Of a stretch of DNA of 64,000 nt, positions 1,831 through 15,850 are shown in pieces. A program made the position numbers and the translations under genes. Position 1 is the first letter of the stretch, and each line of letters starts with the position of its first letter. Under the pieces are notes generated by a model, which was given only the letters and a program-made list of their open reading frames with translations, had not been told where the DNA came from and ran no database searches. Where the stretch lies: positions 56,234,001-56,298,000 of the forward strand of contig NW_027266341.1 in the NCBI RefSeq assembly GCF_022045235.1. Direction: 5' to 3'. The DNA is from Haliotis cracherodii. Taxonomy: Eukaryota.

Positions 1831-4829
1831 ATGAAGGTAAATATGTTTGAATTATTTGAATCCATTCCCTATTTAGAAAATATTATATCGTATTAGCGAA
1901 ATAATTGTTGAAAACGAAAACAAGATTAATTGATCAATTTCATAACTTGTCCTTTGATGTGATAGACGAGAGTGGAAATAACCTGACGGTACCACCCTAG
2001 GACGCTGTTTCATAACTTGCTTCCGATGTACCATTGCGTTTAATTTTATTTTATTTTAAATATTTATTACAACCAGAAATAAATTGTACACTTCAAATTT
2101 CTAAACACTTGAAAGGATTTTACTGTTTTGTTTACTATCTTATAATTATTAATCATCCAGGACTGCCTATATGTTTATAAGCATGTCAGTACTTTGAATG
2201 AAAAGGTCATTGATACAAAAATTGTAAACATGTACGTATGACTATATGTGATATCCTACTGACAAGAAGTTAAAAAACACCCGATTCTTTCATGTTTTAC
2301 AGTAGAAATGTCATGGCATGACAAATTAACGAAAGTAATATATAATATGAAATTTCAGTACCTGCTATATGTTATTCGAAAAAAACCTAAATGTTACAAA
2401 ATGTGTATATTGTATTTCTTTAATTTCAGCTTCCCTACGTCTTCGTGGTAACGGCGCTGTGTGTCGCCGCGGCACCAGCAGAATATGGCACCAACATCAA
2501 CTCATACGGCTCCAGTGGTCGGGACCAAACCCAATCGGTGGTACAAGATAGCCAATTCGGCCAGGACCAGGGCAAGTCAACCAAATCGTTGAGAGACTTA
2601 GACAGTTTTAACGGAGCACAGAACAGACAAGCCCAGAATGGACGGAACTACAACGGACGAGCTAACCAATACGGACAAAAGAATGCCAAGGCTGCGGAAA
2701 GTGGTAACAAGGCATCTCAGAACTTCGCAAAGCAGGATGCAAAATATGACGAGGTTGCTCGCCAGATCGCCGACGCTGGCTACTCACAAGGCTACCAGTC
2801 CGCTGCCCAGGGGAAGTATGATAATCTGGATGACAACAGGGCTCGTGGGTACAATGGTGCAGCTGCAAACAAGAAGGCTTATAACAGAGGGAAGGTGTTC
2901 AATGACAACATCTCTTATGGATTTGATAAGAAGTTTGATCAAGATTTGACCGAGAGGGGAGGCTTTGAGGAGGAGAACGGCCACACCGCTCACAAGCTGG
3001 ATGAGTACAGGGATAAGCAAAAGGCTAGGAAGCTGCTCAGAGGGGATCATTCTGCTGCCAATGCCAGACAGGATGCTCAGCACGCTCTTAAAGAAAGCAA
3101 GTTCAGCCAGAACGCTGCTCAGAAGCAGGCTGCCAATGGTAAATACGGCAACAGCGACAAGAAACTCGACAAAGCTGGTGCTACCCAGGATGCTCAAGCT
3201 GTTCAGTATGATAGGAAGGATAGCAAGTTCCAAGCCGAGGATGCTGGTCGTCAACAGGCTGTCAAGAAGGCAAACGAATTCGCAAACAAGGACAACGCTT
3301 TCGGACGCCAGGCTGCTGCCAGTCATGCAGGAGCTCAAGGACATGCTGATAAGAAATACTATGGAGGTCATGGCAATGATGGAAACCACGGTGGCATTAC
3401 TGGAGGCACTGCTTACGGAAACAATGGTGTCCATGGCAGCTCATCTGGTACTGGTACCGGCACCCATGGCCAAGGAAGTTCAGGACTTGCTAATCACAAG
3501 TATGGAGAGGACACCAAACAGGTTGACCAAGGTAAAGAACGTCTTGCCCAGGCTGCTGGAGCCACAGATGCTGCTCTTAAAGAATACAAGCAGGCAAAGA
3601 ACACAGGACAATTCGCCCAGCTGAAGAGTCTTCATGATCAACGCAACGGTAAATTTGCTCAGGGAGTCCACGATGCTCAAAATAATGGCTTCAATGCCAA
3701 GGATAGCCAGGCCGCTAAAACAGCCAGTGGGGGTGATAAGAAATATGCCGATGCTGCTGCCCAGTCCAACGCGAAGGCTGCCAAACACGATCTTGACGAA
3801 GCTGCTTTTGACAAGGAGAACTTCAAGAGGAACCAACAAGACAGGAACGAGAACTTCAAGAAGCTAAAGAGGTTCTACCATGACAAGAAATCTGGTGGCA
3901 ACAACATCGAGAGGCTCAACTACAACCGGAAGAGGGTCGAGAACGAGTTTGGAGAGACACAAGCTGCCCAAAAAGATCACCAGAACCAGTTTGACAAGGC
4001 TCACAAATCTGCAAAGCACAACCAAGCACAAAGGAAGAATAACTTCCAGGACGCCAAAAAGTCATCCAATGGCTTCAGCGTCAACAACGCCAAGAAGCTC
4101 TCTCATGGAAATGCTAACAACCAAGCTGCAGCCTTCAACAAAGCGGCACAGCAGGCTTATGGAAACAAGAAAGACGTTGCAGAGACTGACTTTTCCAACA
4201 ATAGAGATGCTTTAACTAAGCAGCAAAAGAATCTTCATGATAATGCTGTTGGTTCTTCTGCAGCAACATCCCAGGGATTCAAGAACGCTGCTGCTGCCGA
4301 GATTGTGAAACTTGGAAACGGCGGTGGCATCAGTGGTAACCTCATCAGCAACGGTGCCCACAGAACTCCAAGAAGAGGTTTCGAAGCTGTCAATAATGTA
4401 CATGGATCTGACATCCATGGCGCTAGCAGACCAGGTTCCGTCTACCAAGGTAACACGAACCACTTCGACAATGTTGGCGATAACAGCTTCGGCGGCTACA
4501 GAGGTGACCAACATAGAGGAAGGGCTCTAGGATCTGTTGGTTCTGTCAATTCTGGATACGGCAGCAACCGTGGGCATGGGGACAACTTTGGGTCGAGCTT
4601 TGGTGGGTTTAATGATGGATTCGGCAACTTTGGTTCCTTCGGTCAGAATAAGGGCAATTCCTTTAGTGGAACATATGCATCTAAATTAGGCGGAAGGTCT
4701 TCCGTGCCTCACAGAGGAGGTGACCTAAGCCTCTTTGGTTCCGGCTTTTCCTCTTTCGGTGGATCTAGCTCATTTGGTGCCAAACCTCAATTTGGGTTCA
4801 GACATAGCGCTAAAGGAAGTCTTTACTAG
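1831..4829 (+). CDS. Gene 1: secreted K/D/Q/N/A/G-rich structural protein, ~801 aa; join(1831..1836,2430..4829)
   Basis: ATGAAG|gtaaat donor at 1837. The tttcag| acceptor at 2429 is in frame with the 794-aa ORF and gives the signal-peptide-like N-terminus MKLPYVFVVTALCVAAAPA. AATAAA at 4920. Strong similarity to gene 2. Confidence 0.9.
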
Positions 4830-5204
4830 AACCAGTTGACCAATACCATCGCTGAAAACCACTTCTTTGGTTGGAGGAAGAATTAAAATGTAGTGTGAAG
4901 TTGGTATGTTATAACTTGAAATAAACATCGTATACAATCATTATTGTTTATTTTACTTTTTATTTAGACAATAACAATCAGTGATGGTAGATAAAAGCAA
5001 CAACTGATATTCATGCTATGGCAACAAAGGTGTAAGGATGTATTCAATGTGGATCCATGTAACGAACACATTCAGAAACGGTGTCCCTTTGTTAAGATAT
5101 TGTTGTTGTTGTTGTTTTTTAAATAGACCATGGTGTTCACTTTATGCTAAATATGATGCTGATTTAATACTCTATAGTTTCGCATTTTTCTCACTAATAC
5201 GGGT

Positions 5205-14700: not shown

Positions 14701-15850
14701 TGAAAGACTTAAGTACAACAGAAAGAGGGTCGAAAATGAGTTTGGCAATACACAAGCTGCTCAGAAGGAACAACAAGGACAGTTTGATAACGCCCACAAA
14801 TCTGCCAAGCATAATGCTGCTTCAAGAAAAGACAACTACCAGGATGCTAAGAAAGCTTCCAGGGGCTTCAGCCTTAACAAAGCAAACAGGGATTCAGCAG
14901 CCAAGTCCAACATCAATGCTCATACATTCGACAAGGCTGCCCAGCAGGCTCATGGAAACAAGAAGGATATTGCTGAGTCTGACTTCAAGAACCAAAAGGA
15001 TTCCCTGCAGCAGAAACAGCAAAAACTCCACGACAACACCATTGGAGCCTTTGGAGTCAGTGCTGATGGTTACAAGAATGCCAAGGCTCAGGAGAAACAG
15101 TCTAGCGGCAGCGTCCTTGGCGGAACTGGTCTTAACGTTGGATTCGGCATCGGGTCATCGGCTGCTTACAGAGATGATAAAAACGGTGTTCTAGGAAACA
15201 TTGCTTCTGGAGCCCACGACAATGACTTTCATGGCAACGTTGTTACCGGGGCAAACCGGAATGAAGTCCACGGTGTTTCTGGTGCTGTAAATGGTGTTCA
15301 TGATTCCAACAATATCCACCAGGGAGATGTTGTTCATGGTTCCAACAATATCCACCAGGGAGATGATATTCATGGTTCCAACAATATCCACCAGGGAGAT
15401 GATGTCCATGGTTCCAATAACTTTCACCAAGGAGGTAACAGCTACAGAAACGGTAACAGCAACAACGCTGGTTCCTATGGCAGCACTGGAAGTCAACACT
15501 TCGGCGGTAAAAGGCGGGTTGGTAATCTGGATAACCATGGTCAATCTGGCTACGGAAATAACCATGCCAATAGCTTTGGAAGCAGCCTCTTTGGCCATGG
15601 TACAGGTAGTTTCGGCAATGGTCTGTTTGGCAGCTTCGGTTCTTTTGGACATGGAAGTGGACGAGGTAACAGTAACTTTGGAAGAAGCTATGCTTCCAAA
15701 TCCGGTGAACGGACATCCGTGCCCCGATCAGGTGGACTGTTTAGTTCCTCCTTCGGCAGTTCATTCAATAAACCCAAACCTTTCAGGTCATCTTTTGGGT
15801 CTAAACCACAATTTGGCTTTGGCCTAGGTTCCAAAGGACCCCTTTTCTAA
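11779..15850 (+). CDS. Gene 2: paralogue of gene 1, ~864 aa; join(11779..11784,13262..15850)
   Basis: ATGAAG|gtaagt donor. The ttacag| acceptor at 13261 is in frame with the 865-aa ORF and gives MKAVYATLVTALYAAVVLA. AATAAA at 15962. Long blocks identical to gene 1, e.g. AYNRGKVFNDNISYGFDKKF and ENFKKLKRFYHDKKSGGNN. Confidence 0.92.
15296..15433 (+). repeat. Coding 36-nt tandem repeat x4, (V/I)HGSNNIHQGDD
   Basis: catggttccaacaatatccaccagggagatgat repeated inside gene 2; absent from gene 1. Confidence 0.9.

Follow-up and report, generated by a model that had tools for sequence, protein, structure and literature searches.

Two neighbouring genes of the abalone Haliotis cracherodii, lying in the 64,000-nucleotide stretch of DNA analysed here (the window), raise the question of why proteins of such low complexity hold two long segments at a constant length around a variable linker. 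The earlier note on this locus had proposed that these two arms pair in register, as a very long β-ribbon or an antiparallel coil. All 16 residues that it listed were found at an offset of 7: our numbers are those of P0001 (window 2424-4826), which is the spliced protein numbering, and those of the note are ours minus 7, so that its sum of 659 is 673 here and 649 in its numbering would be 663. Its premise of equal arm lengths in both paralogues was borne out, since both arms align without gaps, and only the exact counts needed correction: TNINS to KKYY spans 291 residues in both proteins instead of 289, and H.YG to G(F/Y)KN, also equal in the two, measures 260 residues start to start instead of 259. 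The linker (a difference of 11 codons between paralogues) and the tail are indeed free to vary. Regarding the gene models (Table 1), the exon joint of gene 1 from 1836 to 2430, with GT..AG ends, is present in one contig of run X3, and the product is a protein of 801 aa (pI 9.6) whose signal peptide was called by eye from the hydrophobic N-terminus; gene 2, spliced as its splice signals predict, encodes 864 aa (pI 9.4), with the same length and N-terminus as the annotated protein P0004. Identity between genes 1 and 2 at the three codon positions is 0.81, 0.88 and 0.48, and the coding sequences indicate purifying selection between them.

Table 1. Positions of the features of genes 1 and 2 in the window
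Feature	Positions	Strand	Basis
Gene 1, first coding exon (Met-Lys), then GT donor	1831..1836	+	Contig of run X3, splice signals
Gene 1, intron, 593 bases	1837..2429	+	Run X3 contig, splice signals
Gene 1, second exon: remaining predicted signal peptide, arm 1, linker, arm 2, tail, stop	2430..4829	+	
Gene 1, arm 1, residues 57-305, predicted β-strand	2592..3338	+	Gap-free family-wide; arm 2 complementary at i+j=663 and 665
Gene 1, arm 1, best-conserved block (residues 158-200)	2895..3023	+	Highest pairing score
Gene 1, Gly-rich linker, residues 306-357	3339..3494	+	
Gene 1, arm 2, residues 358-606, predicted strand pairing antiparallel with arm 1	3495..4241	+	Complementarity at 663 and 665
Gene 1, arm 2, best-conserved block (residues 463-505), mirror of 158-200	3810..3938	+	
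Gene 1, low-complexity G/S/F/N tail	4287..4826	+	Varies freely among paralogues and orthologues
Gene 2, first coding exon (Met-Lys)	11779..11784	+	Splice signals; length and N-terminus of annotated P0004
Gene 2, second exon	13262..15850	+	
Gene 2, arm 1	13418..14164	+	
Gene 2, Gly-rich linker, 41 residues	14165..14287	+	
Gene 2, arm 2	14288..15034	+	
Gene 2, low-complexity tail carrying four short repeats of HxSNNxHQGD type	15080..15847	+	

Both proteins belong to what is, on sequence grounds, a previously undescribed family of predicted secreted proteins of snails and slugs. The named matches are gastropod with one exception, the abalone genome holds eight copies, and source labels on members include 'sericin 1-like', 'keratin-like' and 'filaggrin-like'. 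Across the family, the arms are gap-free at ~30% identity around a linker that measures 35-68 residues among the first 16 sequences and is much longer in P0038. One-arm deletions, which the earlier note had set against its own proposal, occur in 4 of 20 later homologue records (P0015, P0016, P0035 and P0041), and P0019, a row dropped from the set, displays by eye a large asymmetric deletion; errors in the gene models may account for such deletions. Proline accounts for 3 of 15,515 arm residues versus 343 of 8,998 outside, and cysteine for none in the arms. An FG-like tail is not a family-wide feature: one caenogastropod clade has tails rich in Pro, and a second subfamily tails rich in Tyr and Gly. 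Genes 1 and 2 matched no Pfam family at E≤1, and the 42 members matched seven, each in a single row and none recurring. The five matches of a PDB sequence search were to unrelated proteins and were put down to low complexity, a repeated search for homologues by word index yielded no further protein, and our literature search found no description of a gastropod hairpin family. Searches by accession found no relevant paper, and the passages covered from radula and shell articles name no tissue for the family. The earlier note had named DUF4779-like families as an example for a Pfam comparison: these insect proteins are secreted, charged and of low complexity, with long-hairpin models. The Pfam search found no DUF4779 match among the 42 members, and the name is absent from the literature searched.

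Does the constancy of the arms reflect their pairing with each other? When arm 1 is aligned antiparallel to arm 2 at i+j=663, gene 1 displays 22 opposite-charge pairs versus one like-charge pair and 13 Gly-aromatic pairs, and gene 2 has 24 opposite- versus one like-charge pair at the equivalent register. For charge, 663 ranks first of 140 registers in 11 of the 11 first sequences (among them P0004, a duplicate of gene 2), with p values of 0.00005-0.00075 in ten of them and 0.073 in Lottia P0011. The Gly-aromatic pairs of gene 1 are also strongly biased in parity, 11 having an odd i versus 2 an even one (p 0.00005). Among 20 later homologues, found after the register had been fixed, the predicted register was exactly the best in 11 and was displaced by +2 in four more, the five that miss it being three fragments (19-102 pairs), P0029 and P0035. 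Pooled, these later sequences provide 100 Gly-aromatic pairs at 663 odd and 72 at 665 even, over a background with a mean of 17 and a maximum of 36. The pairing score reaches a z of 13.1 at 663 and 8.3 at 665 and exceeds background at 663 in every 20-residue bin, while like-charge pairs fall from a background of 85 to 26-34 at 663 and, in a weaker depletion, to 59 at 665 even. Side-chain volume compensation was not seen at 663 (z 0.1), and the charge signal of the second subfamily is weak (L003 ranks 13 of 121).

Other pairings were examined and rejected. Parallel arm 1-arm 2, arm 1-arm 1 and arm 2-arm 2 arrangements reach a best z of only 3.1-3.6; parallel self-offsets of the arms stay at z ≤3.6 on the pairing score, and the arms look non-repetitive in alignments. 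The arms of gene 1 are compatible in pairing with those of gene 2. Hetero-pairing of the two subfamilies gave no same-species advantage (charge score 3.4/5.1 versus 5.3/4.5 with other species), self-pairing in that test having a net charge score of 15.9/11.2. Weak peaks for self-antiparallel pairing, at 352 and 975, are mirror images of one another and count as a lead only.

The aromatic mirror that the earlier note had placed at 673 is, by contrast with the register supported here, attributable to chance. Its five pairs compare with a mean of 5.2 at the best register of a shuffled arm 2, and permutation gives p 0.89 (exact register) and 0.98 (3-wide band) for gene 1, 0.26 and 0.69 for gene 2, and 1.0 in a phylogeny-keeping test on 33 family members. 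The register supported here has no aromatic-aromatic pair in seven of eight tabulated sequences and a single one in the remaining sequence. Nor do the two GG motifs face each other, G179 and G180 being opposite F484 and Y485, and G492 opposite F171. The conserved charged blocks do hold mirror positions, although around a sum of ~660-663 and not 673. What is strongly supported is the very long in-register antiparallel β pairing itself, at 649 (663 here) in place of 659, and what supports it is charge, Gly-aromatic and His-acid pairing together with covariation, not aromatic mirroring.

Covariation across 36 sequences uncovers a second register. Its z is 7.4 at 663 and 7.3 at 665 versus 0.4-1.3 at 662, 664 and 666, charge changes alone give a z of 6.4, and covariation within each arm is maximal at lag 2. 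The anti-diagonal signal anticipated by the earlier note is hence present, although at these two sums and not at 673. Peaks at 663 and 665 with null even sums are a pattern of β-strands. At 665, gene 1 has six Gly-aromatic pairs with an even i and none with an odd one (p 0.01), and the pooled later homologues contain 64 Asn-Asn pairs at 665 even versus a background maximum of 33. When arm-2 columns were shuffled in blocks with the phylogeny kept (33/36 sequences, 3000 shuffles), none of the 3000 matched the observed scores at 663 (charge, odd Gly-aromatic and even His-acid pairs) or at 665 (charge, even Gly-aromatic and even Asn-Asn pairs); His-acid pairing at 665 odd was not significant in the same shuffles (p 0.16).

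The simplest rival is a lone intramolecular twisted two-stranded β-ribbon, in which 665 would stem from diagonal neighbours or from i,i+2 correlations along the strand. It would agree with a charge score, summed over 8 sequences, that is higher at 663 (146) than at 665 (85) and still signals at 661 (68). In addition, three of eight recurrent Gly-aromatic pairs at 665 even, plus a weaker fourth, adjoin a 663-odd pair and four do not, so that the 665-even pairs are not fully independent of those at 663 odd. However, the close diagonal of ideal ribbons is S-2, on one face only, and our ideal-geometry model puts S+2 side chains of a lone ribbon 8.4-10.6 Å apart at either parity. Moreover, covariation is as strong at 665 as at 663, on both parities, and about twice as strong as at 661, and the Gly-aromatic and Asn-Asn signals at 665 even are absent at 661. 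We thus regard a lone ribbon as unlikely. In the same model, a partner on the opposite strand edge brings S+2 side chains to 4.2-5.2 Å, distances taken from the two backbone settings that docked well. Since the 665 signal with its flipped parity is not expected of a lone ribbon, it points to a second partner on the other strand edge. Gly-aromatic pairs may prefer hydrogen-bonded sites, a preference for which the literature search found no paper; the two-edge argument is independent of which parity is hydrogen-bonded. According to the literature, an aromatic ring can lie over the glycine of a neighbouring strand.

The explanation that we consider probable is that complementary arms of ~250 residues pair antiparallel on both edges and that copies build a sheet or barrel, probably a structural material. 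Each arm pair would be a β-hairpin ~80 nm long that zips edge to edge into sheets or tubes, many copies giving one continuous β-sheet or closed barrel of 65-85 nm along the strand. Every arm 1 would form hydrogen bonds with one arm 2 at 663 and with another at 665, so that consecutive hairpins would be shifted by two residues relative to each other. Salt bridges, His-acid and Asn-Asn pairs and aromatic rings over glycines would fix the register. The stronger register, 663, would most simply be the intramolecular one, a tentative assignment of the two. The Gly-rich linker would close the hairpin, with the tails protruding at one end. More speculatively, storage might be helical or loose, with zipping up after secretion, and the material might most likely be a chitin-associated organic hard part, e.g. 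radula or jaw. The registers, as read from sequence, would fit an open sheet or a closed tube alike. A narrower version, which we hold as possible but rather doubtful, is that headless giant hairpins close several at a time into all-β nanotubes (~65 nm x 2-3 nm), a gastropod hard-tissue fibre, possibly after a helix-to-strand switch.

Structure predictions bring in another alternative, namely an antiparallel α-helical hairpin or coiled coil as the functional form, only a 45-residue core being β. The two AlphaFold2 models (mean pLDDT 41 and 48) are mostly helical outside the core, with long helices over most of both arms. Ala, Gln, Lys, Asp and Asn are abundant in the arms, while Val, Ile and Thr are scarce, and such a make-up favours helix. 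Against this, model confidence is low, the register signal extends beyond the core and occurs at S and S±2 with none at ±1 or ±3 and without a 3-4-7 pattern, pair types depend on parity, and the arms lack heptad periodicity, their hydrophobic power at a period of 3.5-3.6 being little, at 0.5-1.7 times the mean. A helical functional form seems to us quite improbable, and the antiparallel coil that the earlier note had offered beside the β-ribbon is disfavoured by a signal at ±2 only and by the lag-2 covariation inside each arm. Within the AlphaFold2 model built from 42 sequences, the ends of strands 158-174 and 489-505 sum to 663 and those of 180-186 and 479-485 to 665 (DSSP ranges). The ESM Atlas model of a Lottia member has a pLDDT of 0.31; the ESM Atlas gave no usable match (TM ≤0.34), and Foldseek with a low-confidence model gave zero matches.

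A defensive or membrane-piercing β-barrel, with a role like that of the stem in pore-forming proteins, is very unlikely. A stagger of two residues per hairpin would suit oligomeric barrels such as aerolysin, whose inner prepore barrel has 14 strands and a shear of 14 (PMC4947156), MACPF proteins set a precedent for helix-to-hairpin conversion (bioRxiv 10.1101/2021.07.03.450947), and the abalone arms are net positive. Nevertheless, the arms have no alternating hydrophobic face (hydrophobic power at period 2 of 0.0 and 0.3) and their two faces are equally charged, the Pfam search found no MACPF, CDC, aerolysin core or receptor-binding domain, the caenogastropod member P0009 is neutral, and the neighbouring genes resemble material proteins. 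Compared with oligomeric β-barrels to which each subunit gives one or two hairpins (the inner barrel of aerolysin; perforin and the membrane attack complex), the abalone proteins have neither sequence or domain relation nor globular head, and the predicted barrel, at 65-85 nm, would far exceed the ~12.5 nm of perforin. Equally improbable is an intrinsically disordered low-complexity secreted protein whose mirror pattern is structurally meaningless, which would accord with the composition, the lack of a Pfam family and the poor Lottia model but not with gap-free arms, register-specific pairing (p near 0.0003 in phylogeny-keeping shuffles), its replication in later homologues or the selection between genes 1 and 2.

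If pairing on both edges is correct, an uninterrupted β-strand pair of ~250 residues exists in animals, and charge and Gly-aromatic pairing alone have kept its exact register throughout the gastropod radiation, with neither hydrophobic core nor repeats. This would represent a new design among secreted biomaterials as well as a template, provided by nature, for long β-sheets or nanotubes of defined length; a nanotube would be ~5 times as high as the perforin barrel, with a pore-type stagger serving as structural fibre. It would also mean that proteins labelled as sericin-, keratin- or filaggrin-like, for which predictors give helices or disorder, can conceal a precise structure of long range, which a simple test along the anti-diagonal exposes. 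Because the registers name exact residue pairs, the hairpin claim is directly testable.

Known secreted materials offer partial parallels, here from PMC9999432. Caddisfly silk fibroin is likewise an animal material protein with antiparallel β-hairpins and oppositely charged submotifs, but it consists of repeated, calcium-stabilised blocks, whereas the abalone arms look non-repetitive and would form one register of 250 pairs, and no homology was found. Whelk egg-capsule proteins, which are gastropod secreted rods passing from helix to β-sheet under strain, are heptad coiled coils, unlike arms with a β-type register. The histidine-rich proteins of squid beak (GHGXY repeats) resemble the neighbours of genes 1 and 2 and not these genes themselves. 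Those neighbours, Gly-rich and mostly GHG-rich predicted secreted genes in a cluster extending over more than 120 kb, supply by their resemblance to material proteins a context for a material role of genes 1 and 2. Their products are short, some with GHGVY; most of the repeats are GHGPF or GHG(V/A)xG, and the short-motif likeness to squid beak proteins may be convergence.

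The register analysis performed during this work suggests that the two arms encoded by each of the neighbouring paralogues, genes 1 and 2, very probably pair as antiparallel beta-strands, residue i of arm 1 facing residue j of arm 2 at i + j = 663 (gene 1 numbering, which is that of the earlier note + 7). That note had proposed a hairpin rod from fixed arm lengths, an aromatic mirror and mirror-placed charged blocks; its antiparallel in-register beta pairing of the arms is supported, and its register is corrected from 673 to 663, the five aromatic pairs at 673 being what the best register of shuffled arms is expected to show (p 0.89 in gene 1 and 0.26 in gene 2; p 1.0 over 33 family members). 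The unexpected peak at 663, ten residues away in the same scan, brings together 23 opposite-charge versus 1 like-charge pair in gene 1 and, at the equivalent sum, 26 versus 1 in gene 2 (22/1 and 24/1 with narrower arm bounds). At this sum, gene 1 ranks 1/121 for three pair types (opposite-charge, Gly-aromatic, His-acid) and takes the last place for like charges. The 663 sum is the best charge register in 11/11 of the first sequences (p <0.001 in ten, 0.073 in one), and charge changes covary there (z 6.4). Among 20 of the 33 later matches, the 13 others being omitted as short or mostly one-arm, the predicted register is best in 11 and the +2 register in 4, and it is missed in 5 (three of them fragments).

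Several features argue for beta structure. Pair types at 663 alternate in parity, with Gly-aromatic on odd i (z 10.6) and His-acid on even i (z 9.9), and mutual information reaches z 7.4 at 663 and 7.3 at 665, falls to 3.8 at 667 and 3.1 at 661, and is null where the sum is even. Its maximum within either arm is at lag 2; the arms are almost devoid of proline (3/15,515 residues), their heptad power is low, and the pairing signal spans their full length, being strongest at residues 160-199. The equal arm lengths reported earlier for both paralogues were recovered (291 and 260 with the end points chosen here; linkers differing by 11), and residues 60-305 and 358-603 need no insertion column across the first 16 sequences (13 gap-free, three with gaps at arm ends only), whose identities go down to 27%. 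Evidence against beta comes from the AlphaFold2 models, which are low-confidence and mostly helical (pLDDT 41 with 16 sequences, 48 with 42). In the second model, by its DSSP ranges, there are core strands with ends summing to 663 and 665. One-arm deletions, which the earlier note held to be fatal to the hairpin, occur in 4/20 later homologues and tell against it unless they are gene-model errors; by eye, the dropped protein record P0019 also has one. Each arm also has a weak self-antiparallel charge peak around the conserved core (z about 3.1-3.2), at sum 352 for arm 1 and 975 for arm 2; the two are not independent and could reflect a further contact or chance.

At 665, the Gly-aromatic rule recurs on even i (z 8.0), together with Asn-Asn (z 7.3). 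Both are replicated in 20 later sequences (72 versus a background maximum of 36, and 64 versus 33), and 0/3000 phylogeny-keeping block shuffles reach either signal; His-acid pairs at 665 lack significance under these shuffles (p 0.16). Since backbone groups point alternately left and right, a parity flip is expected for the other strand edge, whereas slipping by two residues along one and the same edge would preserve parity. In ideal models, side chains paired at 665 are 8.4-10.6 Å apart in a lone ribbon versus 4.2-5.2 Å with an opposite-edge partner, with good docking in two of four backbone settings. As one chain has only two arms, filling both edges takes several chains. The 663 and 665 scores are both higher within gene than across subfamilies, as would suit homo-oligomers or mixtures of the gene 1 and gene 2 products. 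We consider a two-edge sheet or barrel probable and a closed nanotube doubtful.

After secretion, the arms would zip up as a hairpin with about 246 pairs, and each hairpin would join its neighbours edge to edge with a stagger of two residues. An open sheet would measure 81-86 nm along the strand, and a closed barrel whose shear equals its strand number about 65 nm, at a tilt of about 37 degrees. A two-residue stagger is also reported for the inner barrel of the aerolysin prepore and for adjacent subunits of perforin; however, neither face of the hairpin is hydrophobic here, so that a membrane pore is unlikely. The family may work in the manner of an oligomeric sheet or barrel assembled from hairpins, and it belongs to no tested family; no relatives were found in Pfam, among solved structures, by Foldseek or among Atlas look-alikes, and open-access full text gave no description of it. 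Its genes may figure in shell or radula proteome tables. What sets it apart, on the evidence of sequence statistics, is a 250-residue register that is uninterrupted and without head domain. Insect DUF4779 proteins may be a shorter parallel.

The window is of animal origin. Genes 1 and 2 have a two-codon first exon followed by a single long second exon, and encode 801 and 864 aa, ordered as hydrophobic N-terminus (a predicted signal peptide, by eye), arm 1, Gly-rich linker, arm 2 and low-complexity tail. The spliced gene 2 product shares length and N-terminus with an NCBI-named Haliotis cracherodii protein, and the arms align identically; this record comes from the same assembly and is not independent evidence. 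Each protein has a single N-glycosylation sequon, in the core (gene 1 residue 162, window 2907-2915, and its gene 2 equivalent), which is absent from several homologues.

The first homologue search found the family in Haliotis, Gigantopelta, Lottia, Batillaria and Littorina. Six paralogues lie on the same contig, and a repeat search returned the same 8 loci. This second subfamily is Tyr/Asn/Ala-rich with long stop-free antisense frames, and its charge signal is weak; His-acid pairs rank 1/121 at the same register in both members tested. A profile search over 1.84 billion representatives gave 36 matches, 33 of them new; the named ones among the 28 looked up come from Nucella, Pomacea, Gigantopelta, Plakobranchus, Batillaria and Babylonia, plus one Enterococcus-labelled record. 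The latter, P0031, is a partial member on a contig of 993 bases; its label, Enterococcus faecium, probably reflects contamination of that record. Restriction to gastropods holds among the other named matches and is not proven. A midpoint-rooted tree of 29 arm sequences has two clades, both containing, by source names, Haliotis, Lottia, Gigantopelta, Nucella, Batillaria and Plakobranchus.

Positions of the features in the window and of the related paralogues
Feature	Position	Strand	Remark
Gene 1 intron	1837-2429		spanned by a single public-run contig; GT..AG ends
Self-antiparallel peak region, arm 1	about 2871-3023		gene 1 residues 150-200
Self-antiparallel peak region, arm 2	about 3810-3959		gene 1 residues 463-512
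Short Gly-rich open frame	21362-21766	-	hydrophobic N-terminus
Short Gly-rich open frame	26723-27352	-	hydrophobic N-terminus
Short Gly-rich open frame	30989-31717	+	hydrophobic N-terminus
Short Gly-rich open frame	37417-38127	-	hydrophobic N-terminus
Short Gly-rich open frame	42878-43588	+	hydrophobic N-terminus
Short Gly-rich open frame	51580-52224	+	hydrophobic N-terminus
Short Gly-rich open frame	58842-59429	+	hydrophobic N-terminus
Second-subfamily paralogues L003-L008	G000:C78, about 54.88-54.94 Mb		six clustered copies, 1.3 Mb from window

Genes 1 and 2 sit in a >120-kb cluster whose predicted secreted genes are rich in Gly and, for the most part, in GHG. Adult Plakobranchus has no shell, and its possession of the family, together with the likeness of the GHG-rich cluster to squid beak proteins, leads us to prefer an organic hard part, for example the radula or jaw, with perhaps even odds among tissues. 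The likeness lies in the neighbours' motifs (PMC9999432). Six of the seven short frames carry 7-18 GHG motifs each (GHGPF, some GHGVY), several have Tyr/Asn/Gly blocks, and the six scanned had no Pfam match. The frames at 37417 and 42878 form a near-identical inverted pair. The GHG-rich array extends beyond the window, to loci L012-L014 (30 kb after) and from L011:8767 to L010:839 (before), with at least 6 further GHG-rich genes of alternating orientation; roughly 20 kb ahead of the window there is a predicted secreted Gly/Asn-rich gene, about 690 codons long. Finally, spurious long open frames arise from a minisatellite and from long simple repeats of GT/CA type (window 1-370 and about 41000-41800; L009:6000-8500).
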